Below are positions 6,001 to 29,666 of a stretch of DNA of 64,000 nt, piece after piece. Below the pieces are notes generated by a model that had not been told where the DNA came from, ran no database searches, and saw only the letters and a program-made list of their open reading frames with translations. Every line of letters begins with the position of its first letter. Position 1 is the first letter of the stretch. Both the position numbers and the translations under genes were made by a program. Origin of the DNA: Laetmonice hystrix (lineage: Eukaryota); assembly GCA_965235115.1 (NCBI GenBank), contig OZ249436.1, positions 4,962,001 through 5,026,000 on the forward strand, written 5' to 3'.

Positions 6001-9000
6001 GGACAATAAAGGCATGGAAACATAAAACATGAGGCGTCCCTATACTACTGGCTACTCTTGTATTCAAGCAGACGGTACAGGAAGGCCAAACAGTACAGGG
6101 AGGAATCGCTACAAGGTATACTGGCTTGCCTAGCACCCAAGCGAACACTACAGTGAGGCCGAACAGTACACTGTGGGGCCAAACAGTGTGGTAGGCCAAC
6201 CAGTAGAGTGAGAAGTCCCTACATCTTACCCGTTGGCCTCTCGTAGCCATGCAAAAACTACAGTGAGGTAGTATAAACGAAAGGTACAGGCGAGGAGCAT
6301 CTAATGTTAAAATCTGGAGAAGATACTCGAATGTTAAGTGTACACATCACAACCATATATCTATAGCGAACGTACGAGACCTATACGTTTGACAGTTATA
6401 CATCTGGCCTAAGAATCATAATTTTTGGGGACGTAGTTTCAATTCGACGTATCATTTTTCGCTTATCATTGCTTTAACCTGTCTCTCGCCTAAGAGCCAC
6501 AGGTGCCTGCCAGCCCGGCCAGGTGTACGTGGTGATTCCACCGTTGGCCGGAAGGCGGCAGTGCAGTCAGCCTCGCCGCCGCCGCTGCGCTGCACCCTGG
6601 TGTTTTCTGCCTGCACCATCTCTGTGTAGTCCTTCTTTGCTTGTTCGTTACTTGGCGATGGGATATCTAATATAGAAAAGGCGTACAACGTCATTTGCCA
6701 TTGTTAACTAAACCTTGACGACAAACAGTCATCAAACCTTGCAACGTTGTTGGACGCTTACAGATGGTCTGTAGGGGACACAGATTAGATTGGAGTAGAT
6801 GATAGACCAAACGTATGGCCTGCCTCCTGGACAATAAAGGCATGAAAACATAAAACATGAGGCGTCCCTATACTACTGGCTACTCTTGTATTCAAGCAGA
6901 CGGTACAGGAAGGCCAAACAGTACAGGGAGGAATCGCTACAAGGTATACTGGCTTGCCTAGCACCCAAGCGAACACTACAGTGAGGCCGAACAGTACACT
7001 GTGGGGCCAAACAGTGTGGTAGGCCAACCAGTAGAGTGAGAAGTCCCTACATCTTACCCGTTGGCCTCTCGTAGCCATGCAAAAACTATACAGTGAGGTA
7101 GTATAAATGAAAGGTACAGGCGAGGAGCATCTAATGTTAAAATCTGGAGAAGATACTCGAATGTTAAGTGTACACATCACAACCATATATCTGTAGCGAA
7201 CGTACGAGACCTATACGTTTGACAGTTATACATCTGGCCTAAGAATAATAATTTTTGGGGGCGTAGTTTCAATTCGACGTATCATTTTTCGCTTATCATT
7301 GCTTTAACCTGTCTCTCGCCTAAGAGCCACAGGTGCCTGCCAGCCCGGCCAGGTGTACGTGGTGATTCCACCGTTGGCCGGAAGGCGGCAGTGCAGTCAG
7401 CCTCGCCGCCGCCGCTGCGCTGCACCCTGGTGTTTTCTGCCTGCACCATCTCTGTGTAATCCTCCTTTGCTTGTTCGTTACTTGGCGATGGGATATCTAA
7501 TATAGAAAAGGCGTACAACGTCATTTGCCATTGTTAACTAAACCTTGACGGCAAACAGTCATCAAACCTTGCAACGTTGTTGGACGCTTACAGATGGTCT
7601 GTAGGGGACACAGATTAGATTGGAGTAGATGATAGACCAAACGTATGGCCTGCCTCCTGGACAATAAAGGCATGGAAACATAAAACATGAGGCGTCCCTA
7701 TACTACTGGCTACTCTTGTATTCAAGCAGACGGTACAGGAAGGCCAAACAGTACAGGGAGGAATCGCTACAAGGTATACTGGCTTGCCTAGCACCCAAGC
7801 GAACACTACAGTGAGGCCGAACAGTACACTGTGGGGCCAAACAGTGTGGTAGGCCAACCAGTAGAGTGAGAAGTCCCTACATCTTACCCGTTGGCCTCTC
7901 GTAGCCATGCAAAAACTACAGTGAGGTAGTATAAACGAAAGGTACAGGCGAGGAGCATCTAATGTTAAAATCTGGAGAAGATACTCGAATGTTAAGTGTA
8001 CACATCACAACCATATATCTATAGCGAACGTACGAGACCTATACGTTTGACAGTTATACATCTGGCCTAAGAATCATAATTTTTGGGGACGTAGTTTCAA
8101 TTCGACGTATCATTTTTCGCTTATCATTGCTTTAACCTGTCTCTCGCCTAAGAGCCACAGGTGCCTGCCAGCCCGGCCAGGTGTACGTGGTGATTCCACC
8201 GTTGGCCGGAAGGCGGCAGTGCAGTCAGCCTCGCCGCCGCCGCTGCGCTGCACCCTGGTGTTTTCTGCCTGCACCATCTCTGTGTAGTCCTTCTTTGCTT
8301 GTTCGTTACTTGGCGATGGGATATCTAATATAGAAAAGGCGTACAACGTCATTTGCCATTGTTAACTAAACCTTGACGACAAACAGTCATCAAACCTTGC
8401 AACGTTGTTGGACGCTTACAGATGGTCTGTAGGGGACACAGATTAGATTGGAGTAGATGATAGACCAAACGTATGGCCTGCCTCCTGGACAATAAAGGCA
8501 TGAAAACATAAAACATGAGGCGTCCCTATACTACTGGCTACTCTTGTATTCAAGCAGACGGTACAGGAAGGAAAAAACAGTACAGGGAGGAATCGCTACA
8601 AGGTATACTGGCTTGCCTAGCACCCAAGCGAACACTACAGTGAGGCCGAACAGTACACTGTGGGGCCAAACAGTGTGGTAGGCCAACCAGTAGAGTGAGA
8701 AGTCCCTACATCTTACCCGTTGGCCTCTCGTAGCCATGCAAAAACTATACAGTGAGGTAGTATAAATGAAAGGTACAGGCGAGGAGCATCTAATGTTAAA
8801 ATCTGGAGAAGATACTCGAATGTTAAGTGTACACATCACAACCATATATCTGTAGCGAACGTACGAGACCTATACGTTTGACAGTTATACATCTGGCCTA
8901 AGAATAATAATTTTTGGGGGCGTAGTTTCAATTCGACGTATCATTTTTCGCTTATCATTGCTTTAACCTGTCTCTCGCCTAAGAGCCACAGGTGCCTGCC

Positions 9001-12000
9001 AGCCCGGCCAGGTGTACGTGGTGATTCCACCGTTGGCCGGAAGGCGGCAGTGCAGTCAGCCTCGCCGCCGCCGCTGCGCTGCACCCTGGTGTTTTCTGCC
9101 TGCACCATCTCTGTGTAATCCTCCTTTGCTTGTTCGTTACTTGGCGATGGGATATCTAATATAGAAAAGGCGTACAACGTCATTTGCCATTGTTAACTAA
9201 ACCTTGACGGCAAACAGTCATCAAACCTTGCAACGTTGTTGGACGCTTACAGATGGTCTGTAGGGGACACAGATTAGATTGGAGTAGATGATAGACCAAA
9301 CGTATGGCCTGCCTCCTGGACAATAAAGGCATGGAAACATAAAACATGAGGCGTCCCTATACTACTGGCTACTCTTGTATTCAAGCAGACGGTACAGGAA
9401 GGCCAAACAGTACAGGGAGGAATCGCTACAAGGTATACTGGCTTGCCTAGCACCCAAGCGAACACTACAGTGAGGCCGAACAGTACACTGTGGGGCCAAA
9501 CAGTGTGGTAGGCCAACCAGTAGAGTGAGAAGTCCCTACATCTTACCCGTTGGCCTCTCGTAGCCATGCAAAAACTACAGTGAGGTAGTATAAACGAAAG
9601 GTACAGGCGAGGAGCATCTAATGTTAAAATCTGGAGAAGATACTCGAATGTTAAGTGTACACATCACAACCATATATCTATAGCGAACGTACGAGACCTA
9701 TACGTTTGACAGTTATACATCTGGCCTAAGAATCATAATTTTTGGGGACGTAGTTTCAATTCGACGTATCATTTTTCGCTTATCATTGCTTTAACCTGTC
9801 TCTCGCCTAAGAGCCACAGGTGCCTGCCAGCCCGGCCAGGTGTACGTGGTGATTCCACCGTTGGCCGGAAGGCGGCAGTGCAGTCAGCCTCGCCGCCGCC
9901 GCTGCGCTGCACCCTGGTGTTTTCTGCCTGCACCATCTCTGTGTAATCCTTCTTTGCTTGTTCGTTACTTGGCGATGGGATATCTAATATAGAAAAGGCG
10001 TACAACGTCATTTGCCATTGTTAACTAAACCTTGACGGCAAACAGTCATCAAACCTTGCAACGTTGTTGGACGCTTACAGATGGTCTGTAGGGGACACAG
10101 ATTAGATTGGAGTAGATGATAGACCAAACGTATGGCCTGCCTCCTGGACAATAAAGGCATGGAAACATAAAACATGAGGCGTCCCTATACTACTGGCTAC
10201 TCTTGTATTCAAGCAGACGGTACAGGAAGGCCAAACAGTACAGGGAGGAATCGCTACAAGGTATACTGGCTTGCCTAGCACCCAAGCGAACACTACAGTG
10301 AGGCCGAACAGTACACTGTGGGGCCAAACAGTGTGGTAGGCCAACCAGTAGAGTGAGAAGTCCCTACATCTTACCCGTTGGCCTCTCGTAGCCATGCAAA
10401 AACTACAGTGAGGTAGTATAAACGAAAGGTACAGGCGAGGAGCATCTAATGTTAAAATCTGGAGAAGATACTCGAATGTTAAGTGTACACATCACAACCA
10501 TATATCTATAGCGAACGTACGAGACCTATACGTTTGACAGTTATACATCTGGCCTAAGAATCATAATTTTTGGGGACGTAGTTTCAATTCGACGTATCAT
10601 TTTTCGCTTATCATTGCTTTAACCTGTCTCTCGCCTAAGAGCCACAGGTGCCTGCCAGCCCGGCCAGGTGTACGTGGTGATTCCACCGTTGGCCGGAAGG
10701 CGGCAGTGCAGTCAGCCTCGCCGCCGCCGCTGCGCTGCACCCTGGTGTTTTCTGCCTGCACCATCTCTGTGTAGTCCTTCTTTGCTTGTTCGTTACTTGG
10801 CGATGGGATATCTAATATAGAAAAGGCGTACAACGTCATTTGCCATTGTTAACTAAACCTTGACGACAAACAGTCATCAAACCTTGCAACGTTGTTGGAC
10901 GCTTACAGATGGTCTGTAGGGGACACAGATTAGATTGGAGTAGATGATAGACCAAACGTATGGCCTGCCTCCTGGACAATAAAGGCATGAAAACATAAAA
11001 CATGAGGCGTCCCTATACTACTGGCTACTCTTGTATTCAAGCAGACGGTACAGGAAGGCCAAACAGTACAGGGAGGAATCGCTACAAGGTATACTGGCTT
11101 GCCTAGCACCCAAGCGAACACTACAGTGAGGCCGAACAGTACACTGTGGGGCCAAACAGTGTGGTAGGCCAACCAGTAGAGTGAGAAGTCCCTACATCTT
11201 ACCCGTTGGCCTCTCGTAGCCATGCAAAAACTATACAGTGAGGTAGTATAAATGAAAGGTACAGGCGAGGAGCATCTAATGTTAAAATCTGGAGAAGATA
11301 CTCGAATGTTAAGTGTACACATCACAACCATATATCTGTAGCGAACGTACGAGACCTATACGTTTGACAGTTATACATCTGGCCTAAGAATAATAATTTT
11401 TGGGGGCGTAGTTTCAATTCGACGTATCATTTTTCGCTTATCATTGCTTTAACCTGTCTCTCGCCTAAGAGCCACAGGTGCCTGCCAGCCCGGCCAGGTG
11501 TACGTGGTGATTCCACCGTTGGCCGGAAGGCGGCAGTGCAGTCAGCCTCGCCGCCGCCGCTGCGCTGCACCCTGGTGTTTTCTGCCTGCACCATCTCTGT
11601 GTAATCCTCCTTTGCTTGTTCGTTACTTGGCGATGGGATATCTAATATAGAAAAGGCGTACAACGTCATTTGCCATTGTTAACTAAACCTTGACGGCAAA
11701 CAGTCATCAAACCTTGCAACGTTGTTGGACGCTTACAGATGGTCTGTAGGGGACACAGATTAGATTGGAGTAGATGATAGACCAAACGTATGGCCTGCCT
11801 CCTGGACAATAAAGGCATGGAAACATAAAACATGAGGCGTCCCTATACTACTGGCTACTCTTGTATTCAAGCAGACGGTACAGGAAGGCCAAACAGTACA
11901 GGGAGGAATCGCTACAAGGTATACTGGCTTGCCTAGCACCCAAGCGAACACTACAGTGAGGCCGAACAGTACACTGTGGGGCCAAACAGTGTGGTAGGCC

Positions 12001-15000
12001 AACCAGTAGAGTGAGAAGTCCCTACATCTTACCCGTTGGCCTCTCGTAGCCATGCAAAAACTACAGTGAGGTAGTATAAACGAAAGGTACAGGCGAGGAG
12101 CATCTAATGTTAAAATCTGGAGAAGATACTCGAATGTTAAGTGTACACATCACAACCATATATCTATAGCGAACGTACGAGACCTATACGTTTGACAGTT
12201 ATACATCTGGCCTAAGAATCATAATTTTTGGGGACGTAGTTTCAATTCGACGTATCATTTTTCGCTTATCATTGCTTTAACCTGTCTCTCGCCTAAGAGC
12301 CACAGGTGCCTGCCAGCCCGGCCAGGTGTACGTGGTGATTCCACCGTTGGCCGGAAGGCGGCAGTGCAGTCAGCCTCGCCGCCGCCGCTGCGCTGCACCC
12401 TGGTGTTTTCTGCCTGCACCATCTCTGTGTAATCCTTCTTTGCTTGTTCGTTACTTGGCGATGGGATATCTAATATAGAAAAGGCGTACAACGTCATTTG
12501 CCATTGTTAACTAAACCTTGACGGCAAACAGTCATCAAACCTTGCAACGTTGTTGGACGCTTACAGATGGTCTGTAGGGGACACAGATTAGATTGGAGTA
12601 GATGATAGACCAAACGTATGGCCTGCCTCCTGGACAATAAAGGCATGGAAACATAAAACATGAGGCGTCCCTATACTACTGGCTACTCTTGTATTCAAGC
12701 AGACGGTACAGGAAGGCCAAACAGTACAGGGAGGAATCGCTACAAGGTATACTGGCTTGCCTAGCACCCAAGCGAACACTACAGTGAGGCCGAACAGTAC
12801 ACTGTGGGGCCAAACAGTGTGGTAGGCCAACCAGTAGAGTGAGAAGTCCCTACATCTTACCCGTTGGCCTCTCGTAGCCATGCAAAAACTACAGTGAGGT
12901 AGTATAAACGAAAGGTACAGGCGAGGAGCATCTAATGTTAAAATCTGGAGAAGATACTCGAATGTTAAGTGTACACATCACAACCATATATCTATAGCGA
13001 ACGTACGAGACCTATACGTTTGACAGTTATACATCTGGCCTAAGAATCATAATTTTTGGGGACGTAGTTTCAATTCGACGTATCATTTTTCGCTTATCAT
13101 TGCTTTAACCTGTCTCTCGCCTAAGAGCCACAGGTGCCTGCCAGCCCGGCCAGGTGTACGTGGTGATTCCACCGTTGGCCGGAAGGCGGCAGTGCAGTCA
13201 GCCTCGCCGCCGCCGCTGCGCTGCACCCTGGTGTTTTCTGCCTGCACCATCTCTGTGTAGTCCTTCTTTGCTTGTTCGTTACTTGGCGATGGGATATCTA
13301 ATATAGAAAAGGCGTACAACGTCATTTGCCATTGTTAACTAAACCTTGACGACAAACAGTCATCAAACCTTGCAACGTTGTTGGACGCTTACAGATGGTC
13401 TGTAGGGGACACAGATTAGATTGGAGTAGATGATAGACCAAACGTATGGCCTGCCTCCTGGACAATAAAGGCATGAAAACATAAAACATGAGGCGTCCCT
13501 ATACTACTGGCTACTCTTGTATTCAAGCAGACGGTACAGGAAGGCCAAACAGTACAGGGAGGAATCGCTACAAGGTATACTGGCTTGCCTAGCACCCAAG
13601 CGAACACTACAGTGAGGCCGAACAGTACACTGTGGGGCCAAACAGTGTGGTAGGCCAACCAGTAGAGTGAGAAGTCCCTACATCTTACCCGTTGGCCTCT
13701 CGTAGCCATGCAAAAACTATACAGTGAGGTAGTATAAATGAAAGGTACAGGCGAGGAGCATCTAATGTTAAAATCTGGAGAAGATACTCGAATGTTAAGT
13801 GTACACATCACAACCATATATCTGTAGCGAACGTACGAGACCTATACGTTTGACAGTTATACATCTGGCCTAAGAATAATAATTTTTGGGGGCGTAGTTT
13901 CAATTCGACGTATCATTTTTCGCTTATCATTGCTTTAACCTGTCTCTCGCCTAAGAGCCACAGGTGCCTGCCAGCCCGGCCAGGTGTACGTGGTGATTCC
14001 ACCGTTGGCCGGAAGGCGGCAGTGCAGTCAGCCTCGCCGCCGCCGCTGCGCTGCACCCTGGTGTTTTCTGCCTGCACCATCTCTGTGTAATCCTCCTTTG
14101 CTTGTTCGTTACTTGGCGATGGGATATCTAATATAGAAAAGGCGTACAACGTCATTTGCCATTGTTAACTAAACCTTGACGGCAAACAGTCATCAAACCT
14201 TGCAACGTTGTTGGACGCTTACAGATGGTCTGTAGGGGACACAGATTAGATTGGAGTAGATGATAGACCAAACGTATGGCCTGCCTCCTGGACAATAAAG
14301 GCATGGAAACATAAAACATGAGGCGTCCCTATACTACTGGCTACTCTTGTATTCAAGCAGACGGTACAGGAAGGCCAAACAGTACAGGGAGGAATCGCTA
14401 CAAGGTATACTGGCTTGCCTAGCACCCAAGCGAACACTACAGTGAGGCCGAACAGTACACTGTGGGGCCAAACAGTGTGGTAGGCCAACCAGTAGAGTGA
14501 GAAGTCCCTACATCTTACCCGTTGGCCTCTCGTAGCCATGCAAAAACTACAGTGAGGTAGTATAAACGAAAGGTACAGGCGAGGAGCATCTAATGTTAAA
14601 ATCTGGAGAAGATACTCGAATGTTAAGTGTACACATCACAACCATATATCTATAGCGAACGTACGAGACCTATACGTTTGACAGTTATACATCTGGCCTA
14701 AGAATCATAATTTTTGGGGACGTAGTTTCAATTCGACGTATCATTTTTCGCTTATCATTGCTTTAACCTGTCTCTCGCCTAAGAGCCACAGGTGCCTGCC
14801 AGCCCGGCCAGGTGTACGTGGTGATTCCACCGTTGGCCGGAAGGCGGCAGTGCAGTCAGCCTCGCCGCCGCCGCTGCGCTGCACCCTGGTGTTTTCTGCC
14901 TGCACCATCTCTGTGTAGTCCTTCTTTGCTTGTTCGTTACTTGGCGATGGGATATCTAATATAGAAAAGGCGTACAACGTCATTTGCCATTGTTAACTAA

Positions 15001-16125
15001 ACCTTGACGACAAACAGTCATCAAACCTTGCAACGTTGTTGGACGCTTACAGATGGTCTGTAGGGGACACAGATTAGATTGGAGTAGATGATAGACCAAA
15101 CGTATGGCCTGCCTCCTGGACAATAAAGGCATGAAAACATAAAACATGAGGCGTCCCTATACTACTGGCTACTCTTGTATTCAAGCAGACGGTACAGGAA
15201 GGCCAAACAGTACAGGGAGGAATCGCTACAAGGTATACTGGCTTGCCTAGCACCCAAGCGAACACTACAGTGAGGCCGAACAGTACACTGTGGGGCCAAA
15301 CAGTGTGGTAGGCCAACCAGTAGAGTGAGAAGTCCCTACATCTTACCCGTTGGCCTCTCGTAGCCATGCAAAAACTATACAGTGAGGTAGTATAAATGAA
15401 AGGTACAGGCGAGGAGCATCTAATGTTAAAATCTGGAGAAGATACTCGAATGTTAAGTGTACACATCACAACCATATATCTGTAGCGAACGTACGAGACC
15501 TATACGTTTGACAGTTATACATCTGGCCTAAGAATAATAATTTTTGGGGGCGTAGTTTCAATTCGACGTATCATTTTTCGCTTATCATTGCTTTAACCTG
15601 TCTCTCGCCTAAGAGCCACAGGTGCCTGCCAGCCCGGCCAGGTGTACGTGGTGATTCCACCGTTGGCCGGAAGGCGGCAGTGCAGTCAGCCTCGCCGCCG
15701 CCGCTGCGCTGCACCCTGGTGTTTTCTGCCTGCACCATCTCTGTGTAATCCTCCTTTGCTTGTTCGTTACTTGGCGATGGGATATCTAATATAGAAAAGG
15801 CGTACAACGTCATTTGCCATTGTTAACTAAACCTTGACGGCAAACAGTCATCAAACCTTGCAACGTTGTTGGACGCTTACAGATGGTCTGTAGGGGACAC
15901 AGATTAGATTGGAGTAGATGATAGACCAAACGTATGGCCTGCCTCCTGGACAATAAAGGCATGGAAACATAAAACATGAGGCGTCCCTATACTACTGGCT
16001 ACTCTTGTATTCAAGCAGACGGTACAGGAAGGCCAAACAGTACAGGGAGGAATCGCTACAAGGTATACTGGCTTGCCTAGCACCCAAGCGAACACTACAG
16101 GCTCGACCACCAAAGCTCCTTTTTT

Positions 16126-16459
16126 AGGGGAGTGGCGGTGGCCTAGTGGGCATGGATGTCAACACCTTATGCTATGCGAATGGGTGCAGTAATCTTAGGG
16201 CCTGGGTTCGATTCCTGTAGAGGACTATACAACTTTTCTCTTTAGGGACATTGTCAAAGTAATTGGGTTACCCCTGATGCCCGTGCATTTCAAAAGAAAA
16301 ATACAGTCTACGCCAGTGCCAGGATTACCTTAACAGTCAATGTTCGGTAGAAATCATGTGTAGCTCTAACTAGGAAAATATGGATTCCGTCTCATTTCAA
16401 AAAGATGTGTGTAGGGGGGAGGGTCCATTGTCCTGCTCGACCACCAAAGCTCCTTTTTT
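16126..16459 (+). ncRNA. Putative 334-nt Pol III transcript (monomer from AGGGGAG to TTTTTT), predicted rod-like fold
   Basis: A box TGGCCTAGTGG at 16139-16149, B box GGTTCGATTCC at 16205-16215, and a T6 run ending each unit immediately before the next head. Extensive self-complementarity across the unit was seen by eye. Transcription is not shown, and an internal TTTT at 16234-16237 could terminate early. Confidence 0.55.
16139..16215 (+). promoter_or_regulatory. Type-2 RNA polymerase III internal promoter (A and B boxes), repeated in each 334-bp copy
   Basis: TGGCCTAGTGG matches the A-box consensus TRGCNNARYNG. GGTTCGATTCC matches the B-box consensus GGTTCGANTCC. The boxes are 55 nt apart. 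Confidence 0.75.
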
Positions 16460-19400
16460 AGGGGAGTGGCGGTGGCCTAGTGGGCATGGATGTCAACACC
16501 TTATGCTATGCGAATGGGTGCAGTAATCTTAGGGCCTGGGTTCGATTCCTGTAGAGGACTATACAACTTTTCTCTTTAGGGACATTGTCAAAGTAATTGG
16601 GTTACCCCTGATGCCCGTGCATTTCAAAAGAAAAATACAGTCTACGCCAGTGCCAGGATTACCTTAACAGTCAATGTTCGGTAGAAATCATGTGTAGCTC
16701 TAACTAGGAAAATATGGATTCCGTCTCATTTCAAAAAGATGTGTGTAGGGGGGAGGGTCCATTGTCCTGCTCGACCACCAAAGCTCCTTTTTTAGGGGAG
16801 TGGCGGTGGCCTAGTGGGCATGGATGTCAACACCTTATGCTATGCGAATGGGTGCAGTAATCTTAGGGCCTGGGTTCGATTCCTGTAGAGGACTATACAA
16901 CTTTTCTCTTTAGGGACATTGTCAAAGTAATTGGGTTACCCCTGATGCCCGTGCATTTCAAAAGAAAAATACAGTCTACGCCAGTGCCAGGATTACCTTA
17001 ACAGTCAATGTTCGGTAGAAATCATGTGTAGCTCTAACTAGGAAAATATGGATTCCGTCTCATTTCAAAAAGATGTGTGTAGGGGGGAGGGTCCATTGTC
17101 CTGCTCGACCACCAAAGCTCCTTTTTTAGGGGAGTGGCGGTGGCCTAGTGGGCATGGATGTCAACACCTTATGCTATGCGAATGGGTGCAGTAATCTTAG
17201 GGCCTGGGTTCGATTCCTGTAGAGGACTATACAACTTTTCTCTTTAGGGACATTGTCAAAGTAATTGGGTTACCCCTGATGCCCGTGCATTTCAAAAGAA
17301 AAATACAGTCTACGCCAGTGCCAGGATTACCTTAACAGTCAATGTTCGGTAGAAATCATGTGTAGCTCTAACTAGGAAAATATGGATTCCGTCTCATTTC
17401 AAAAAGATGTGTGTAGGGGGGAGGGTCCATTGTCCTGCTCGACCACCAAAGCTCCTTTTTTAGGGGAGTGGCGGTGGCCTAGTGGGCATGGATGTCAACA
17501 CCTTATGCTATGCGAATGGGTGCAGTAATCTTAGGGCCTGGGTTCGATTCCTGTAGAGGACTATACAACTTTTCTCTTTAGGGACATTGTCAAAGTAATT
17601 GGGTTACCCCTGATGCCCGTGCATTTCAAAAGAAAAATACAGTGAGGCCGAACAGTACACTGTGGGGCCAAACAGTGTGGTAGGCCAACCAGTAGAGTGA
17701 GAAGTCCCTACATCTTACCCGTTGGCCTCTCGTAGCCATGCAAAAACTACAGTGAGGTAGTATAAACGAAAGGTACAGGCGAGGAGCATCTAATGTTAAA
17801 ATCTGGAGAAGATACTCGAATGTTAAGTGTACACATCACAACCATATATCTATAGCGAACGTACGAGACCTATACGTTTGACAGTTATACATCTGGCCTA
17901 AGAATCATAATTTTTGGGGACGTAGTTTCAATTCGACGTATCATTTTTCGCTTATCATTGCTTTAACCTGTCTCTCGCCTAAGAGCCACAGGTGCCTGCC
18001 AGCCCGGCCAGGTGTACGTGGTGATTCCACCGTTGGCCGGAAGGCGGCAGTGCAGTCAGCCTCGCCGCCGCCGCTGCGCTGCACCCTGGTGTTTTCTGCC
18101 TGCACCATCTCTGTGTAATCCTCCTTTGCTTGTTCGTTACTTGGCGATGGGATATCTAATATAGAAAAGGCGTACAACGTCATTTGCCATTGTTAACTAA
18201 ACCTTGACGGCAAACAGTCATCAAACCTTGCAACGTTGTTGGACGCTTACAGATGGTCTGTAGGGGACACAGATTAGATTGGAGTAGATGATAGACCAAA
18301 CGTATGGCCTGCCTCCTGGACAATAAAGGCATGGAAACATAAAACATGAGGCGTCCCTATACTACTGGCTACTCTTGTATTCAAGCAGACGGTACAGGAA
18401 GGCCAAACAGTACAGGGAGGAATCGCTACAAGGTATACTGGCTTGCCTAGCACCCAAGCGAACACTACAGTGAGGCCGAACAGTACACTGTGGGGCCAAA
18501 CAGTGTGGTAGGCCAACCAGTAGAGTGAGAAGTCCCTACATCTTACCCGTTGGCCTATCGTAGCCATGCAAAAACTACAGTGAGGTAGTATAAACGAAAG
18601 GTACAGGCGAGGAGCATCTAATGTTAAAATCTGGAGAAGATACTCGAATGTTAAGTGTACACATCACAACCATATATCTATAGCGAACGTACGAGACCTA
18701 TACGTTTGACAGTTATACATCTGGCCTAAGAATCATAATTTTTGGAGACGTAGTTTCAATTCGACGTATCATTTTTCGCTTATCATTGCTTTAACCTGTC
18801 TCTCGCCTAAGAGCCACAGGTGCCTGCCAGCCCGGCCAGGTGTACGTGGTGATTCCACCGTTGGCCGGAAGGCGGCAGTGCAGTCAGCCTCGCCGCCGCC
18901 GCTGCGCTGCACCCTGGTGTTTTCTGCCTGCACCATCTCTGTGTAGTCCTTCTTTGCTTGTTCGTTACTTGGCGATGGGATATCTAATATAGAAAAGGCG
19001 TACAACGTCATTTGCCATTGTTAACTAAACCTTGACGGCAAACAGTCATCAAACCTTGCAACGTTGTTGGACGCTTACAGATGGTCTGTAGGGGACACAG
19101 ATTAGATTGGAGTAGATGATAGACCAAACGTATGGCCTGCCTCCTGGACAATAAAGGCATGAAAACATAAAACATGAGGCGTCCCTATACTACTGGCTAC
19201 TCTTGTATTCAAGCAGACGGTACAGGAAGGCCAAACAGTACAGGGAGGAATCGCTACAAGGTATACTGGCTTGCCTAGCACCCAAGCGAACACTACAGTG
19301 AGGCCGAACAGTACACTGTGGGGCCAAACAGTGTGGTAGGCCAACCAGTAGAGTGAGAAGTCCCTACATCTTACCCGTTGGCCTCTCGTAGCCATGCAAA

Positions 19401-22400
19401 AACTACAGTGAGGTAGTATAAACGAAAGGTACAGGCGAGGAGCATCTAATGTTAAAATCTGGAGAAGATACTCGAATGTTAAGTGTACACATCACAACCA
19501 TATATCTATAGCGAACGTACGAGACCTATACGTTTGACAGTTATACATCTGGCCTAAGAATCATAATTTTTGGGGACGTAGTTTCAATTCGACGTATCAT
19601 TTTTCGCTTATCATTGCTTTAACCTGTCTCTCGCCTAAGAGCCACAGGTGCCTGCCAGCCCGGCCAGGTGTACGTGGTGATTCCACCGTTGGCCGGAAGG
19701 CGGCAGTGCAGTCAGCCTCGCCGCCGCCGCTGCGCTGCACCCTGGTGTTTTCTGCCTGCACCATCTCTGTGTAATCCTTCTTTGCTTGTTCGTTACTTGG
19801 CGATGGGATATCTAATATAGAAAAGGCGTACAACGTCATTTGCCATTGTTAACTAAACCTTGACGGCAAACAGTCATCAAACCTTACAACGTTGTCGGAC
19901 GCTTACAGATGGTCTGTAGGTGACACAGATTAGATTGGAGTAGATGATAGACCAAACGTATGGCCTGCCTCCTGGACAATAAAGGCATGGAAACATAAAA
20001 CATGAGGCGTCCCTATACTACTGGCTAGTCTTGTATTCAAGCAGACGGTACAGGAAGGCCAAACAGTACAGGGAGGAATCGCTACAAGGTATACTGGCTT
20101 GCCTAGCACCCAAGCGAACACTACAGTGAGGCCGAACAGTACACTGTGGGGCCAAACAGTGTGGTAGGCCAACCAGTAGAGTGAGAAGTCCCTACATCTT
20201 ACCCGTTGGCCTCTCGTAGCCATGCAAAAACTACAGTGAGGTAGTATAAATGAAAGGTACAGGCGAGGAGCATCTAATGTTAAAATCTGGAGAAGATACT
20301 CGAATGTTAAGTGTACACATCACAACCATATATCTATAGCGAACGTACGAGACCTATACGTTTGACAGTTATACATCTGGCCTAAGAATCAAAATTTTTG
20401 GGGGCGTAGTTTCAATTCGACGTATCATTTTTCGCTTATCATTGCTTTAACCTGTCTCTCGCCTAAGAGCCACAGGTGCCTGCCAGCCCGGCCAGGTGTA
20501 CGTGGTGATTCCACCGTTGGCCGGAAGGCGGCAGTGCAGTCAGCCTCGCCGCCGCCGCTGCGCTGCACCCTGGTGTTTTCTGCCTGCACCATCTCTGTGT
20601 AATCCTTCTTTGCTTGTTCGCTACTTGGCGATGGGATATCTAATATAGAAAAGGCGTACAACGTCATTTGCCATTGTTAACTAAACCTTTACGGCAAACA
20701 GTCATCAAACCTTAGAACGTTGTCGGACGCTTACAGATGGTCTGTAGGGGACACAGATTAGATTGGAGTAGATGATAGACCAAACGTATGGCCTGCCTCC
20801 TGGACAATAAAGGCATGGAAACATAAAACATGAGGCGTCCCTATACTACTGGCTAGTCTTGTATTCAAGCAGACGGTACAGGAAGGCCAAACAGTACAGG
20901 GAGGAATCGCTACAAGGTATACTGGCTTGCCTAGCACCCAAGCGAACACTACAGTGAGGCCGAACGGTACACTGTGGGGCCAAACAGTGTGGTAGGCCAA
21001 CCAGTAGAGTGAGAAGTCCCTACATCTTACCCGTTGGCCTCTCGTAGCCATGCAAAAACTACAGTGAGGTAGTATAAATGACAGGTACAGGCGAGGAGCA
21101 TCTAATGTTAAAATCTGGAGAAGATACTCGAATGTTAAGTGTACACATCACAACCATATATCTATAGCGAACGTACGAGACCTATACGTTTGACAGTTAT
21201 ACATCTGGCCTAAGAATCATAATTTTTGGGGGCGTACTTTCAATTCGACGTATCATTTTTCGCTTATCATTGCTTTAACCTGTCTCTCGCCTAAGAGCCA
21301 CAGGTGCCTGCCAGCCCGGCCAGGTGTACGTGGTGATTCCACCGTTGGCCGGAAGGCGGCAGTGCAGTCAGCCTCGCCGCCGCCGCTGCGCTGCACCCTG
21401 GTGTTTTCTGCCTGCACCATCTCTGTGTAATCCTTCTTTGCTTGTTCGTTACTTGGCGATGGGATATCTAATATAGAAAAGGCGTACAACGTCATTTGCC
21501 ATTGTTAACTAAACCTTGACGGCAAACAGTCATCAAACCTTGCAACGTTGTCGGACGCTTACAGATGGTCTGTAGGGGACACAGATTAGATTGGAGTAGA
21601 TGATAGACCAAACGTATGGCCTGCCTCCTGGACAATAAAGGCATGGAAACATAAAACATGAGGCGTCCCTATACTACTGGCTAGTCTTGTATTCAAGCAG
21701 ACGGTACAGGAAGGCCAAACAGTACAGGGAGGAATCGCTACAAGGTATACTGGCTTGCCTAGCACCCAAGCGAACACTACAGTGAGGCCGAACAGTACAC
21801 TGTGGGGCCAAACAGTGTGGTAGGCCAACCAGTAGATTGAGAAGTCCCTACATCTTACCCGTTGGCCTCTCGTAGCCATGCAAAAACTACAGTGAGGTAG
21901 TATAAATGAAAGGTACAGGCGGGGAGCATCTAATGTTAAAATCTGGAGAAGATACTCGAATGTTAAGTGTACACATCACAACCATATATCTGTAGCGAAC
22001 GTACGAGACCTATACGTTTGACAGTTATACATCTGGCCTAAGAATAATAATTTTAGGGGGCGTAGTTTCAATTCGACGTATCATTTTTCGCTTATCATTG
22101 CTTTAACCTGTCTCTCGCCTAAGAGCCACAGGTGCCTGCCAGCCCGGCCAGGTGTACGTGGTGATTCCACCGTTGGCCGGAAGGCGGCAGTGCAGTCAGC
22201 CTCGCCGCCGTCGCTGCGCTGCACCCTGGTGTTTTCTGCCTGCACCATCTCTGTGTAATCCTTCTTTGCTTGTTCGCTACTTGGCGATGGGATATCTAAT
22301 ATAGAAAAGGCGTACAACGTCATTTGCCATTGTTAACTAAACCTTTACGGCAAACAGTCATCAAACCTTAGAACGTTGTCGGACGCTTACAGATGGTCTG

Positions 22401-25400
22401 TAGGGGACACAGATTAGATTGGAGTAGATGATAGACCAAACGTATGGCCTGCCTCCTGGACAATAAAGGCATGGAAACATAAAACATGAGGCGTCCCTAT
22501 ACTACTGGCTAGTCTTGTATTCAAGCAGACGGTACAGGAAGGCCAAACAGTACAGGGAGGAATCGCTACAAGGTATACTGGCTTGCCTAGCACCCAAGCG
22601 AACACTACAGTGAGGCCGAACAGTACACTGTGGGGCCAAACAGTGTGGTAGGCCAACCAGTAGAGTGAGAAGTCCCTACATCTTACCCGTTGGCCTCTCG
22701 TAGCCATGCAAAAACTACAGTGAGGTAGTATAAATGAAAGGTACAGGCGAGGAGCATCTAATGTTAAAATCTGGAGAAGATACTCGAATGTTAAGTGTAC
22801 ACATCACAACCATATATCTATAGCGAACGTACGAGACCTATACGTTTGACAGTTATACATCTGGCCTAAGAATCATAATTTTTGGGGACGTAGTTTCAAT
22901 TCGACGTATCATTTTTCGCTTATCATTGCTTTAACCTGTCTCTCGCCTAAGAGCCACAGGTGCCTGCCAGCCCGGCCAGGTGTACGTGGTGATTCCACCG
23001 TTGGCCGGAAGGCGGCAGTGCAGTCAGCCTCGCCGCCGCCGCTGCGCTGCACCCTGGTGTTTTCTGCCTGCACCATCTCTGTGTAATTCTTCTTTGCTTG
23101 TTCGTTACTTGGCGATGGGATATCTAATATAGAAAAGGCGTACAACGTCATTTGCCATTGTTAACTAAACCTTGACGGCAAACAGTCATCAAACCTTGCA
23201 ACGTTGTCGGACGCTTACAGATGGTCTGTAGGGGACACAGATTAGATTGGAGTAGATGATAGACCAAACGTATGGCCTGCCTCCTGGACAATAAAGGCAT
23301 GGAAACATAAAACATGAGGCGTCCCTATACTACTGGCTACTCTTGTATTCAAGCAGACGGTACAGGAAGGCCAAACAGTACAGGGAGGAATCGCTACAAG
23401 GTATACTGGCTTGCCTAGCACCCAAGCGAACACTACAGTGAGGCCGAACAGTACACTGTGGGGCCAAACAGTGTGGTAGGCCAACCAGTAGAGTGAGAAG
23501 TCCCTACATCTTACCCGTTGGCCTCTCGTAGCCATGCAAAAACTACAGTGAGGTAGTATAAATGAAAGGTACAGGCGAGGAGCATCTAATGTTAAAATCT
23601 GGAGAAGATACTCGAATGTTAAGTGTACACATCACAACCATATATCTATAGCGAACGTACGAGACCTATACGTTTGACAGTTATACATCTGGCCTAAGAA
23701 TCATAATTTTTGGGGACGTAGTTTCAATTCGACGTATCATTTTTCGCTTATCATTGCTTTAACCTGTCTCTCGCCTAAGAGCCACAGGTGCCTGCCAGCC
23801 CGGCCAGGTGTACGTGGTGATTCCACCGTTGGCCGGAAGGCGGCAGTGCAGTCAGCCTCGCCGCCGCCGCTGCGCTGCACCCTGGTGTTTTCTGCCTGCA
23901 CCATCTCTGTGTAATCCTTCTTTGCTTGTTCGTTACTTGGCGATGGGATATCTAATATAGAAAAGGCGTACAACGTCATTTGCCATTGTTAACTAAACCT
24001 TGACGGCAAACAGTCATCAAACCTTGCAACGTTGTCGGACGCTTACAGATGGTCTGTAGGGGACACAGATTAGATTGGAGTAGATGATAGACCAAACGTA
24101 TGGCCTGCCTCCTGGACAATAAAGGCATGGAAACATAAAACATGAGGCGTCCCTATACTACTGGCTACTCTTGTATTCAAGCAGACGGTACAGGAAGGCC
24201 AAACAGTACAGGGAGGAATCGCTACAAGGTATACTGGCTTGCCTAGCACCCAAGCGAACACTACAGTGAGGCCGAACAGTACACTGTGGGGCCAAACAGT
24301 GTGGTAGGCCAACCAGTAGAGTGAGAAGTCCCTACATCTTACCCGTTGGCCTCTCGTAGCCATGCAAAAACTACAGTGAGGTAGTATAAATGAAAGGTAC
24401 AGGCGGGGAGCATCTAATGTTAAAATCTGGAGAAGATACTCGAATGTTAAGTGTACACATCACAACCATATATCTGTAGCGAACGTACGAGACCTATACG
24501 TTTGACAGTTATACATCTGGCCTAAGAATCATAATTTTTCGGGGCGTAGTTTCAATTTGACGGATCATTTTTCGCTTATCATTGCTTTAACCTGTCTCTC
24601 GCCTAAGAGCCACAGGTGCCTGCCAGCCCGGCCAGGTGTACGTGGTGATTCCACCGTTGGCCGGAAGGCGGCAGTGCAGTCAGCCTCGCCGCCGTCGCTG
24701 CGCTGCACCCTGGTGTTTTCTGCCTGCACCATCTCTGTGTAATCCTTCTTTGCTTGTTCGCTACTTGGCGATGGGATATCTAATATAGAAAAGGCGTACA
24801 ACGTCATTTGCCATTGTTAACTAAACCTTTACGGCAAACAGTCATCAAACCTTACAACGTTGTCGGACGCTTACAGATGGTCTGTAGGGGACACACATTA
24901 GATTGGAGTAGATGATAGACCAAACGTATGGCCTGCCTCCTGGACAATAAAGGCATGGAAACATAAAACATGAGGCGTCCCTATACTACTGGCTAGTCTT
25001 GTATTCAAGCAGACGGTACAGGAAGGCCAAACAGTACAGGGAGGAATCGCTACAAGGTATACTGGCTTGCCTAGCACCCAAGCGAACACTACAGTGAGGC
25101 CGAACAGTACACTGTGGGGCCAAACAGTGTGGTAGGCCAACCAGTAGAGTGAGAAGTCCGTACATCTTACCCGTTGGCCTCTCGTAGCCATGCAAAAACT
25201 ACAGTGAGGTAGTATAAATGAAAGGTACAGGCGAGGAGCATCTAATGTTAAAATCTGGAGAAGATACTCGAATGTTAAGTGTACACATCACAACCATATA
25301 TCTATAGCGAACGTACGAGACCTATACGTTTGACAGTTATACATCTGGCCTAAGAATCATAATTTTTGGGGACGTAGTTTCAATTCGACGTATCATTTTT

Positions 25401-28400
25401 CGCTTATCATTGCTTTAACCTGTCTCTCGCCTAAGAGCCACAGGTGCCTGCCAGCCCGGCCAGGTGTACGTGGTGATTCCACCGTTGGCCGGAAGGCGGC
25501 AGTGCAGTCAGCCTCGCCGCCGTCGCTGCGCTGCACCCTGGTGTTTTCTGCCTGCATCATCTCTGTGTAATCCTTCTTTGCTTGTTCGTTACTTGGCGAT
25601 GGGATATCTAATATAGAACAGGCGTACAACGTCATTTGCCATTGTTAACTAAACCTTGACGGCAAACAGTCATCAAACCTTGCAACGTTGTCGGACGCTT
25701 ACAGATGGTCTGTAGGGGACACAGATTAGATTGGAGTAGATGATAGACCAAACGTATGGCCTGCCTCCTGGACAATAAAGGCATGGAAACATAAAACATG
25801 AGGCGTCCCTATACTACTGGCTAGTCTTGTATTCAAGCAGACGGTACAGAAAGGCCAAACAGTACAGGGAGGAATCGCTACAAGGTATACTGGCTTGCCT
25901 AGCACCCAAGCAAACACTACAGTGAGGCCGAACAGTACACTGTGGGGCCAAACAGTGTGGTAGGCCAACCAGTAGAGTGAGAAGTCCCTACATCTTACCC
26001 GTTGGCCTCTCGTAGCCATGCAAAAACTACAGTGAGGTAGCATAAATGAAAGGTACAGGCGAGGAGCAGCTAATGTTAAAATCTGGAGAAGATACTCGAA
26101 TGTTAAGTGTACACATCACTTGTAACCATATATCTGTAGCGAACGTACGACACCTATACATTTGACAGTTATACATCTGGCCTAAGAATCATAATTTTTG
26201 GGGGCGTAGTTTCAATTCGACGTATCATTTTTCGCTTATCATTGCTTTTACCTGTCTCTCGCCTAAGAGCCACAGGTGCCTGCCAGCCCGGCCAGGTGTA
26301 CGTGGTGATTCCACCGTTGGCCGGAAGGCGGCAGTGCAGTCAGCCTCGTCGCCGTCGCTGCGCTGCATCCTGGTGTTTTCTGCCTGCACCATCTCTGTGT
26401 AATCCTTCTTTGCTTGTTCGTTACTTGGCGATGGGATATCTAATATAGAAAAGGCGTACAACGTCATTTGCCATTGTTAACTAAACCTTGACGGCAAACA
26501 GTCATCAAACCTTGCAACGTTGTCGGACGCTTACAGATGGTCTGTAGGGGACACAGATTAGATTGGAGTAGATGATAGACCAAACGTATGGCCTGCCTCC
26601 TGGACAATAAAGGCATGGAAACATAAAACATGAGGCGTCCCTATACTACTGGCTAGTCTTGTATTCAAGCAGACGGTACAGGAAGGCCAAACAGTACAGG
26701 GAGGAATCGCTACAAGGTATACTGGCTTGCCTAGCAACCAAGCGAACACTACAGTGAGGCCGAACAGTACACTGTGGGGTCAAACAGTGTGGTAGGCCAA
26801 CCAGTAGAGTGAAAAGTCCCTACATCTTACCCGTTGGCCTCTCGTAGCCATGCAAAAACTACAGTGAGGTAGCATAAATGAAAGGTACAGGCGAGGAGCA
26901 GCTAATGTTAAAATCTGGAGAAGATACTCGAATGTTAAGGGTACACATCACTTGTAACCATATATCTGTAGCGAACGTACGAAACCTATACGTTTGACAG
27001 TTATACATCTGGCCTAAGAATCATAATTTTTGGGGGCGTAGTTTCAATTCGACGTATCATTTTTCGCTTATCATTGCTTTAACCTGTCTCTCGCCTAAGA
27101 GCCACAGGTGCCTGCCAGCCCGGCCAGGTGTACGTGGTGATTCCACCGTTGGCCGGAAGGCGGCAGTGCAGTCAGCCTCGCCGCCGTCGCTGCGCTGCAC
27201 CCTATTGTTTTCTGCCTGCACCATCTCTGTGTAGGGCCTCATCCTTCTTTGCTTGTTCGTTACTTGGCGATGGGATATCTAATATAGAAAAGGCGTACAA
27301 CGTCATTTGCCATTGTTAACTAAACCTTGACGGCAAACAGTCATCAAACCATGCAACGTTGTTGGACGCTTACAGATGGTCTGTAGGCGACACAGATTAG
27401 ATTGGAGTAGATGATAGACCAAACGTATGGCCTGCCTCCTGGACAATAAAGGCATGGAAACATAAAACATGAGGCGTCCCTATACTACTGGCTAGTCTTG
27501 TATTCAAGCAGACGGTACAGGAAGGCCAAACAGTACAGGGAGGAATCGCTACAAGGTATACTGGCTTGCCTAGCACCCAAGCGAACACTACAGTGAGGCC
27601 GAACAGTACACTGTGGGGCCAAACAGTGTGGTAGGCCAACCAGTAGAGTGAAAAGTCCCTACATCTTACCCGTTGGCCTCTCGTAGCCATGCAAAAACTA
27701 CAGTGAGGTAGTATAAATGAAAGGTACAGGCGAGGAGCATCTAATGTTAAAATCTGGAGACGATGCTCGAATGTTAAGTGTACACATCACAACCATATAT
27801 CTGTAGCGAACGTACGAGACCTATACGTTTGACAGTTATACATCTGGCCTAAGAATCATAATTTTAGGGGGCGTACTTTCAATTCGACGTATCACTTTTC
27901 GCTTATCATTGCTTTAACCTGTCTCTCGCCTAAGAGCCACAGGTGCCTGCCAGCCCGGCCAGGTGTACGTGGTGATTCCACCGTTGGCCGGAAGGCGGCA
28001 GTGCAGTCAGCCTCGCCGCCGTCGCTGCGCTGCACCCTGGTGTTTTCTGCCTGCACCATCTCTGTGTAATCCTTCTTTGCTTGTTCGCTACTTGGCGATG
28101 GGATATCTAATATAGAAAAGGCGTACAACGTCATTTGCCATTGTTAACTAAACCTTGACGGCAAACAGTCATCAAACCTTGCAACGTTGTCGGACGCTTA
28201 CAGATGGTCTGTAGGGGACACAGATTAGATTGGAGTAGATGATAGACCAAACGTATGGCCTGCCTCCTGGACAATAAAGGCATGGAAACATAAAACATGA
28301 GGCGTCCCTATACTACTGGCTAGTCTTGTATTGAAGCAGACGGTACAGGAAGGCCAAACAGTACAGGGAGGAATCGCTACAAGGTATACTGGCTTGCCTA

Positions 28401-29262
28401 GCACCCAAGCGAACACTACAGTGAGGCCGAACAGTACACTGTGGGGCCAAACAGTGTGGTAGGCCAACCAGTAGAGTGAGAAGTCCCTACATCTTACCCG
28501 TTGGCCTCTCGTAGCCATGCAAAAACTACAGTGAGGTAGTATAAATGAAAGGTACAGGCGGGGAGCATCTAATGTTAAAATCTGGAGAAGATACTCGAAT
28601 GTTAAGTGTAGGCCTACACATCACAACCATATATCTGTAGCGAACGTACGAGACCTATACGTTTGACAGTTATACATCTGGCCTAAGAATCATAATTTTA
28701 GGGGGCGTAGTTTCAATTCGACGGATCATTTTTCGCTTATCATTGCTTTAACCTGTCTCTCGCCTAAGAGCCACAGGTGCCTGCCAGCCCGGCCAGGTGT
28801 ACGTGGTGATTCCACCGTTGGCCGGAAGGCGGCAGTGCAGTCAGCCTCGCCGCCGCCGCTGCGCTGCACCCTGGTGTTTTCTGCCTGCAACATCTCTGTG
28901 TTATCCTTCTTTGTTTGTTTGTTACTTGGCGATGGGATATCTGATATAGAAAAGGCGTACAACGTCATTTGCCATTGTTAACTAAACCTTTACGGCAAAC
29001 AGTCATTAGGACGACCTCACAACGTTGTCGGACGCTTACAGATGGTCTGTAGGTGACACAGATTAGATTGGAGTAGATGATGGACCAAACGTATGGCCTG
29101 CCTCCTGGACAATAAAGGCATGGAAACATGAAACATGAGGCGTCCCTATAGGCTATACTACTGGCTACTCTTGTATACAAGCAAACGGTACAGGGAGGCC
29201 AAACAGTACAGGGAGGAATCGCTATGTACAAGGTATACTGGCTGGCCTAGCACCCAAGCGAA

Positions 29263-29408
29263 GACACCTTATGCTATGCGAATGGGTGCAGTAATCTTAG
29301 GGCCTGGGTTCGGTTCCTGTAGAGGACTATACAACTTTTCTCTTTAGGGACATTGTCAAAGTAATTGGGTTACCCCTGATGCCCGTGCATTTCAAAAGAA
29401 AAATACAG
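29263..29408 (+). mobile_element. 5'-truncated copy (about 145 bp) of the 334-bp element at the same target site
   Basis: ACACCTTATGC...AAAAGAAAAATACAG matches 16162-16306 with one substitution (GGTTCGGTTCC). It is followed by TGAGGCAGAAC, the same host position as the 17642 junction. Confidence 0.92.
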
Positions 29409-29666
29409 TGAGGCAGAACAGTACACTGTGGGGCCAAGCAGTGTGGGAGGCCAACAGTAGAGTGGGAAGTCCCTACATCTTACCGGTTGGCCTCTCGTAG
29501 CCATGCAAAAACTACAGTGAGGTAGTATAAATGAAAGGTACAGGCGAGGAGCATCTAATGTTAAAATCTGGAGAAGATACTCGAATGGGAAGCGGTACAC
29601 ATCACAACCATATATCTGTAGCGAACGTACGAGACCTTATAGGTTTGCCTTGTGTGGACAGGGCAT

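Follow-up and report, generated by a model that had tools for sequence, protein, structure and literature searches.

A 334-nt tandem unit with tRNA-type promoter boxes shares both termini with a Penelope-like element of the same genome

What kind of element is a 334-nt unit that stands head to tail without mismatch inside a satellite and carries tRNA-type promoter boxes? The unit lies in a stretch of 64,000 nt of Laetmonice hystrix DNA (GCA_965235115.1, contig OZ249436.1, positions 4,962,001 to 5,026,000 of the forward strand), here called the window, to which all coordinates refer unless a locus is named. An initial annotation, made from the letters, proposed that the unit folds into a closed, viroid-like rod with an RNA polymerase III (Pol III) promoter and that it is of a kind not recognised as a described family. 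We arrive at a different answer: the 334-nt unit is most probably a non-coding retroposon that is not autonomous and depends for its movement on a Penelope-like element (PLE) of the same genome, which encodes a reverse transcriptase (RT) with a C-terminal GIY-YIG endonuclease. The family is young and high-copy, a hammerhead-less, tRNA-box-bearing relative of the animal retrozymes without long terminal repeats (non-LTR retrozymes).

The 334-nt Array and Its Motifs

The tandem array occupies 16101-17643 on the + strand, with a period of 334 nt and 4.6 copies at 100% matches (Tandem Repeats Finder), and a script comparison of successive 334-nt units gave 0 mismatches over 1,543 nt; the tandem unit first reported is thus real. 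We read the array as a single insertion of a small retroposon: four complete units and a further 207 nt, truncated on the 5' side at unit position 1 and terminating at the family's fixed 3' end. Position 16101, from which the unit was originally counted, is only the truncation point of the window copy; the natural boundary falls at 16308/16309 (unit 208/209).

Three + strand motifs recur every 334 nt: a Pol III terminator-like T6 run (16120..16125) just upstream of a tRNA-like head, an A box TGGCCTAGTGG (16139..16149) and a B box, or T-loop, GGTTCGATTCC (16205..16215), the boxes having been located by motif search. The A-box motif matched five times in the 64-kb window (chance expectation 1.08), as did the B-box motif (chance expectation 0.20), and every match of either lay within the array, the boxes being present in every unit; their place on the + strand agrees with the initial annotation. 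The two sequences fit TRGCNNAGTGG and GGTTCGANNCC, which we take to be the A-box and B-box consensus, respectively. The boxes are 66 nt apart start to start, a spacing that is workable at the motif level only, and the T-run sits 14 nt upstream of the A box. All five T-runs of the window array are intact, with T6 in all units.

Neither a tRNA nor a ribozyme emerged from the searches of this region. ARAGORN called 0 tRNAs on the array. Rfam returned nothing, and no ribozyme, at E≤1 over 15500-18200 (2.7 kb); at E≤10 over 700 nt it gave no ribozyme and no tRNA, the sole match being an 11-nt T-loop (E 1.5). The hammerhead core CUGANGA is absent from both strands of the 334-nt unit, and the earlier view that the unit has no hammerhead therefore stands within these searches. 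One hammerhead-like arrangement was considered, with CUGAUG at unit 174 followed by GAAA and by GUC at 206-208, where the family's 3' end falls. We rejected it, because A9 is C and helix II cannot form; the stretch is homologous to the PLE 3' end.

Contigs from four sequencing runs show the A at 16161 to be a minority variant, the family having G there. In three of these runs, X3, X4 and X7, which are one run of a second organism and two marine metagenome runs, the unit appears as a 364-letter unitig (334 + 30) with G at 16161. A search of sequencing runs listed no RNA run with the sequence, and one other organism in it matched 73% of the sampled words. The 334-nt family, or its host, occurs in the samples of these runs.

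Family Copies and Their 3' End

The family was sought in a 627-Mb animal assembly of 35 contigs. The terminal 26-mer of the unit has 4,304 exact matches (reversed control, 0) and a 27-mer across the 208/209 junction has 2,483, so roughly 1,800 tails terminate an insertion. The earlier description of the unit as a non-coding mobile element occurring as tandem monomers is thereby borne out, with family copies, insertions and arrays across the genome. Loci L001-L083 were examined at the sequence level: the top BLAST hits (L001-L020), hand-picked short hits (L021-L040), the first 30 exact matches on contig 1 (L041-L070), hand-picked long arrays (L071-L080) and loci from a pattern search (L081-L083).

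These loci gave 97 distinct complete segments, of which 83 stop at unit 205-211 (..AAAAATACAGTC) and 14 at other positions; the 5' starts are scattered, occupying 48 positions among 67 starts in one census. A 3' end that stays fixed while the 5' end varies is the mark of target-primed reverse transcription. The segments fall into 45 solo copies (49-208 nt) and 38 longer ones (313-3,819 nt), with none of 213-312 nt, a solo-to-multi ratio that is not a genome estimate. Two-thirds of the solo copies (30/45) start at unit 24-62, and 44 of the 83 segments extend upstream of unit 26. Units in L011, L013, L020 and L034 hold extra linker sequence exactly at 208/209, which fits a natural boundary at that point.

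A degenerate-pattern genome search for other elements sharing the last 21 nt found none; its three hits were all extreme 5'-truncated family copies. The possibility that the spacer (unit 209-334) is an old copy of unit 1-208 was discarded, the two showing no similarity (score 22 vs. 22.6 ± 4.0 for shuffles). A different repeat at L040:501-540 (contig 19) is 90% alike to unit 61-100 (AACACCTTATGCTATG..) and then continues as GGTTGAATTCC; it may be a related tRNA-like element.

A Penelope-like Element with the Same Termini

A genome search for GIY-YIG gave 126 matches, most of them in a 759-aa frame that repeats at intervals of 5,575-5,605 nt, up to seven times in a run; runs of PLE copies with this spacing lie on many contigs. 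One natural PLE unit, read from contig 7 (contiguous loci L091, L096 and L092), is 5,575 nt long and holds two long open reading frames (ORFs). ORF1 (837 aa; L091:2793-3270 continuing in L096:1-2033) matches NADAR (2.5e-24) and, below the Pfam cut-off, a GDSL-like lipase/esterase (1.5e-6); we know of no description of a NADAR plus GDSL-like esterase frame upstream in a PLE. [quoted passage not shown] Fusion of an RT to GIY-YIG defines PLEs, according to the available portions of PMC5753468 and PMC8557442.

Both ends of the 334-nt unit are homologous to the ends of this element. The 3' terminal region (16245..16308, + strand), closing with AAAAATACAGTC, where the unit truly ends on its 3' side, corresponds to the PLE's 3' ~65 nt, matching up to unit position 208 with a common AAAATACAGT end and 78% identity over 45 nt by BLAST. 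The PLE end reads ..GGGTAAACCTGATGCCAGTGCATTT, a 28-nt insert, then CAAATAAAATACAGT, and the unit end reads ..GGGTTACCCCTGATGCCCGTGCATTTCAAAAGAAAAATACAGTC. The 5' terminal region (16309..16347, + strand; TACGCCAGTGCCAGGATTACCTT...), the true 5' end of the unit, is homologous to the first ~37 nt of the PLE: BLAST aligns PLE nt 4-37 with the unit, beginning at position 212, with 83% identity over 35 nt, the PLE start after a PLE-PLE junction being GAAGCCAGTGCCAGGATTATCTTGGGACAGAAATGTT and unit 209 onward being TACGCCAGTGCCAGGATTACCTTAACAGTCAATGTT. Local alignment scores were 37 for the 5' termini (shuffles 12.1 ± 2.0) and 36 for the 3' termini (shuffles 14.2 ± 2.2), and 0 of 1,000 shuffles reached either value. 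Since its ends are homologous to both PLE termini, the natural unit runs 209..208, from 5' TACGCCAGTGCC... to 3' ...AAAAATACAGTC. The same matches remove the unit from the isolated position that the initial annotation had given it.

The PLE also forms head-to-tail arrays, in which units are mutually 100% identical over 3,270 nt. We therefore attribute the tandem form to the way the PLE machinery works, not to an RNA that is circular or rod-shaped. Independent PLE 3' junctions lie in the same hosts as those of the 334-nt family, namely a 33-nt minisatellite at L092 and L082 and, at L095, a monomer resembling the 828 satellite, there at the same site.

The hammerhead motif is said to be universal in PLEs with a C-terminal endonuclease, as stated in the part of PMC8557442 at hand. 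Rfam gave no hammerhead hit on the 5,575-nt PLE unit or in a 141-nt sub-search. A regular-expression match (CTGAAGA..GAAA..UCGA-UA) was found at PLE unit position 730 (L091:2817-2848), CTGAAGAAGGCAGTCCTCTGCCGAAATCGATA, which combines the core CUGANGA with a 5-bp stem, then GAAA, then the palindrome UCGA and UA, and has an extra A after the core. This candidate resembles minimal hammerheads of PLEs. A second group of GIY-YIG frames, at L084-L089 and L093 (contigs 30, 31, 2, 4 and 32), measures 542-561 aa, with two of 2,386 and 2,444 aa; its members are 73-99% alike internally and have no similarity to the 334-nt unit.

Target Sites

The host of the window array is a satellite of 828-830-bp monomers (1..29647, + strand), with 32 full-length monomers at 96.6-100% identity (mean 98.8%) and additional partial ones; its monomers carry 18-nt CAAACAGTACAGNGAGGC-like sub-repeats. 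Monomers are spaced 828-839 nt apart with the lone exception of 2,370 nt (828 + 1,542) at the array. The empty site GCGAACAC^TACAGTGAGGCC is kept exactly in 31 paralogous monomers of the window, and comparison with it reveals a 5-bp target-site duplication, TACAG, whose left copy is at 16096..16100 and whose right copy is at 17638..17642 (both + strand). The filled site accordingly reads ..CAC TACAG, then the element from unit 1 to GAAAAA, then TACAG TGAGG. The right TACAG is both target DNA and the tail motif of the element, which provides microhomology for priming. A second family copy (unit 62-207, 99.3%; 29264..29409, + strand) occupies the same CAC^TACAG site in another monomer, without a duplication and with its 5' junction within a shared AACAC. 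Each monomer has six TACAG motifs and a single CACTACAG; both window insertions use CACTACAG.

Elsewhere, insertions are likewise at CAC^TACAG-like sites. Their 3' flanks open either with G, GT or GTC and then AGG.., or with TAC.., and in this way carry on the tail motif, for 0-3 nt at the insertions examined; the 5' flank closes with CAC in 15 of 83 cases and with TCA in 14. Other host sequences are the 33-nt minisatellite (TACAGTCAGGTGGGGTATATAGGnCCTAATCAC), a 52-nt minisatellite of the type found at 29665-30352, and others with TACA or TACAG. The window holds two 52-nt minisatellites, at 29665-30352 (13 copies, 74%) and 53897-55042 (22 copies, 95%); the reverse complement of the former carries ..CACTACAGTGAGGGCTCCCTACATG.. 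and is the same kind of host as that of insertions L027, L032 and L058. Chains of 5'-truncated copies with about one minisatellite unit (22-33 nt, TACAGTCAGGTGGGGTATATAGG..CTAATCAC) between each are seen in L023, L075 and L014 (contigs 11, 1 and 13). In these chains, either neighboring minisatellite units were each hit or the linker travels with the element, in the manner of the 30-40-bp 'tail' reported in PLEs.

These sites bear on whether the array might be tandem cargo of a rolling-circle DNA transposon, of the non-autonomous Helitron or Helentron type found in bivalve satellites. Such an element would share the fixed 3' end, the variable tandem core and the frequent microsatellite-like flank. 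However, insertion takes place between the C and T of CAC^TACAG and not at A^T or T^T; terminal 5'-TC and CTRR-3' and a 3' hairpin near the end are not seen in the array sequence; 5' truncation is the rule; and the element whose termini match is a PLE and not one with Rep/helicase. We regard this origin as very improbable indeed.

Two frames lie farther downstream in the window. An uninterrupted, intronless 630-aa BTB-BACK-Kelch frame spans 37759-39651 (- strand), and residues 121-166 of the frame at 56945-57484 (+ strand) match the V-ATPase 116-kDa subunit, probably as one exon.

Arrays Elsewhere in the Genome

Eighteen rows with at least 3 full units, some of them overlapping views, reduce to 14 distinct arrays; arrays reach 11.4 units and lie on many contigs. 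Six of the 14 are clonal (0 or 1 singleton variant). The window array (4 full units) has no variant, those at L048/L052 (5 full units), L071 (5) and L072 (4) show no variation, and those at L073 (10) and L074 (4) have one singleton each. The clonal arrays other than that of the window, which served as reference, each have their own fixed variants, and the T-run is uniformly T6 or T7 inside the array in four of these five (L071-L074). The remaining eight arrays, at L006, L007, L020 (two), L075, L077, L078 and L082, are heterogeneous or dimer-type. Clonal arrays fit a multi-unit or continuous template and growth in place alike.

Growth in place is also what an ordinary satellite would do, one spreading at the DNA level through unequal crossing-over, extrachromosomal circles and microhomology-driven reinsertion, with the tRNA-like boxes a fossil. 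Many arrays are clonal and higher-order patterns exist, as such a satellite would have it; the junctions show microhomology (TACAG on the 3' side, AACAC on the 5' side of some sites); and the 334 + 30-nt unitigs of the DNA runs look circular, though any collapsed tandem repeat would look so. On the other hand, the ends are asymmetric (83 of 97 at one position, against starts over dozens of positions), the 45 sub-unit copies have no internal repeat for recombination, and an element of this genome that encodes an RT has the same termini and target sites in the same orientation. Spread purely at the DNA level is in our judgment improbable, and mobilisation by the PLE is the reading carried forward.

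Predicted Pol III Transcription and the Template

Judging from the motifs, the A and B boxes and the T-run probably confer Pol III transcription. The predicted transcript would extend from just after one T-run to the next, exactly one period, and would be a circular permutation of the 209..208 element, with the RT start (208) internal and the PLE-like 5' end downstream. Copying such a transcript from 208 to its 5' end would yield solo copies starting near unit 26, and the observed pile-up of solo starts at 24-62 is equally explained by RT stalling at a stem formed by unit 1-47. Copies extending upstream of unit 26 need a multi-unit transcript, a closed template, template jumps or post-insertion growth. 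A multi-unit Pol III transcript is unlikely because the T-runs are intact in every unit.

A closed or pseudo-closed template is the core of a further explanation, in which the family is a ribozyme-free analogue of retrozymes: the unit-length Pol III transcript would pair its ends and be circularised, and the PLE RT would roll round it from the internal UACAG. The predicted transcript suits this scheme, being exactly one period long and a permutation of the 209..208 element, and its ends would pair in the 1-47 stem. The six clonal arrays of 14, with a T-run length uniform inside the array in the window and at L071-L074, point to a continuous template and argue against repeated jumps at the U-run; with five of five window T-runs intact, Pol III read-through multimers are unlikely; and the 30 of 45 solo starts at unit 24-62 are near the predicted transcript start. 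Yet the 5.6-kb autonomous PLE yields similar clonal head-to-tail arrays without a Pol III unit, so a circle is unneeded; the other arrays (L006, L007, L020, L075, L077, L078, L082) are heterogeneous or of dimer-type higher order; and stalling at the 1-47 stem would produce the same starts. In addition, Pol III transcripts have 5'-triphosphate and 3'-OH ends, which are unsuited to the RtcB-type ligation that retrozymes use, and no rod fold signal was found in linear, circular or rod-only folding (see below). We therefore consider a circular intermediate unlikely, if less so than the two DNA-level schemes above. If it were true, Pol III initiation and termination would replace the retrozyme hammerhead in setting the monomer. 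A tRNA-type gene would then have a ribozyme-free path to arrays of tandem DNA, and the family would be the first PLE partner of the short interspersed element (SINE) type.

Fold and Covariation

We compared the folding of the unit with that of shuffled sequences on both strands. In linear folding, the minimum free energy (MFE) of the + strand was -94.4 kcal/mol (shuffles -94.8 ± 5.0; z +0.08; 55/100 as good) and that of the - strand was -77.9 kcal/mol (shuffles -78.9 ± 5.5; z +0.18; 58/100). Circular folding gave -88.9 kcal/mol on the + strand (shuffles -91.3 ± 5.4; z +0.45; 131/200) and -71.5 kcal/mol on the - strand (shuffles -73.9 ± 5.2; z +0.46; 127/200). The circle was also refolded with multiloops made prohibitively costly, which allows two hairpin loops joined by interior loops. 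This rod-only fold reached -83.5 kcal/mol on the + strand (shuffles -76.8 ± 5.1; z -1.32; 24/200) and -66.7 kcal/mol on the - strand (shuffles -59.4 ± 4.5; z -1.61; 14/200); about one shuffled sequence in eight gives an equally good + strand rod. Shuffling reproduces the difference of 17 kcal/mol between the strands, which thus reflects base composition, not an RNA-specific design.

The + strand rod-only fold has 110 pairs and contains seven of the eight helices checked among those first drawn by eye, ATCTT/AAGAT being absent. The complementary segments described initially are therefore present, but nested they are no stronger than chance (z +0.08, +0.45 and -1.32 on the + strand), and the statement that the fold works only on the + strand is contradicted by the - strand values. 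Locally, one structure alone stands out, an imperfect 17-bp inverted repeat that surrounds the T-run at unit 1-47 (16101..16147, + strand), with z near -2 on both strands (-2.0 on the + strand, 28/1,000 shuffles as good; -2.6 on the - strand, 12/1,000).

For covariation, 32 genomic copies were aligned and the 110 rod pairs were counted. A double change occurs in 1 of 110 pairs and 220 of 500 shuffles equal it, in a test of low power with 32 copies that are too alike; 98.9% of alignment cells are paired, both in the data and in the shuffles. The one double change, CG to UA in 3 copies, lies within the unit 1-47 inverted repeat, and the covariation expected among copies was not found. MFE at shuffle level, an equal minus strand and a lack of covariation among copies are outcomes that the initial annotation had itself listed as refuting its proposal, and the viroid-like rod does not rise above chance.

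Discussion

We propose that the PLE endonuclease nicks CAC^TACAG-like sites and that the nicked DNA end would pair with the RNA tail UACAG(UC) and prime reverse transcription. The complementary DNA (cDNA) would frequently be 5'-truncated, leaving solo copies of 49-208 nt, or would continue into further units, leaving head-to-tail arrays of up to 11 units. Dependence on the PLE is suggested by the shared termini and shared targets, and target-primed integration by the asymmetry of the ends.

Several points weigh against this proposal. The homologous stretches of unit and PLE are short, at roughly 37 and 65 nt. A clear target-site duplication (5 bp) is seen solely at the window copy, and several insertions are blunt; a ~30-nt target duplication at L049 was set aside as ambiguous, the host itself being a tandem repeat. 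The choice of loci L001-L083 was biased. Unequal crossing-over could have lengthened arrays once they were inserted, and clonality does not discriminate. Finally, the T6 or T7 in each unit would stop Pol III short of a complete 209..208 template, so the boxes and the boundaries misfit a simple linear template.

The locus and its family nevertheless form an unusually clean natural record of PLE integration, with a precise CAC^TACAG target, microhomology at the priming site and clonal multi-unit insertions, to which dozens of empty paralogous sites within one satellite add.

How does the family compare with known systems? Like viroids, hepatitis delta virus (HDV) and other rod-like circular RNAs, the unit is a few hundred nucleotides long and can be drawn as a rod; it differs in that its fold is at shuffle level on both strands and in that no ribozyme was found by the searches above. 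[quoted passage not shown] The 334-nt head differs from theirs in keeping boxes only (ARAGORN 0, no Rfam tRNA at E≤10). As described in the available text of PMC2770079, they too are short, high-copy, tRNA-derived retroposons of the Pol III type, also called satellite DNA, but theirs is an active hammerhead and none was found here, the comparison being one by description.

A tRNA-derived SINE with the tail of a long interspersed element (LINE) shares an A/B-box head, a partner-derived 3' tail, 5' truncation and high copy number with the 334-nt unit, as far as the accessible portion of PMC5786205 describes it. The unit departs from a classical SINE in having a PLE and not a LINE as partner and in inserting as multimers. 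Moreover, within its Pol III unit the tail is followed by the partner's 5' end, and the T-run lies upstream of the head, not after the tail. We found no description of a PLE-dependent tRNA-type SINE in the full-text literature, a search that did not cover Repbase, Dfam or SINEBase, where one may be catalogued; the exact unit sequence had no match in the published papers searched.

Also comparable are non-autonomous PLE derivatives such as MRC1 of Chlamydomonas. The excerpted text of PMC8557442 describes for them features that recall the 334-nt family: 3'-end similarity to the autonomous element, pseudo-LTRs and head-to-tail insertions of several copies, 5' truncation as a common event, and a preference for tandem-repeat targets. 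Here, the partner is an animal PLE with a C-terminal endonuclease, and the 334-nt unit also shares its partner's 5' end and has a tRNA-like promoter module.

The nearest relatives are the animal non-LTR retrozymes, which, in the passages of PMC7229834 at hand, are 150-450-bp tandem units (~170-450 bp) with type I hammerheads, expressed as self-paired circles; they have only recently been argued to be non-autonomous PLE partners whose termini match those of PLEs, the hammerhead being their hallmark (bioRxiv 10.64898/2026.07.22.740005, as far as its available text goes). The 334-nt family has in common with them PLE termini and short non-coding tandem units, which range from dimers up to large multimers and lie scattered through invertebrate genomes. 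In retrozymes, however, the type I hammerhead cuts multimers to monomers that are then circularised, whereas no ribozyme was detected in the 334-nt unit, which carries tRNA-type A and B boxes and a T-run in place of the hammerhead. The family thus behaves in the genome as retrozymes do, with PLE termini, a short unit in tandem and young copies by the thousand, yet has no detectable ribozyme. If our reading is true, it is the PLE machinery that would give rise to the tandem habit, not circles made by ribozymes, and parasites of the SINE type could be sustained by PLEs.

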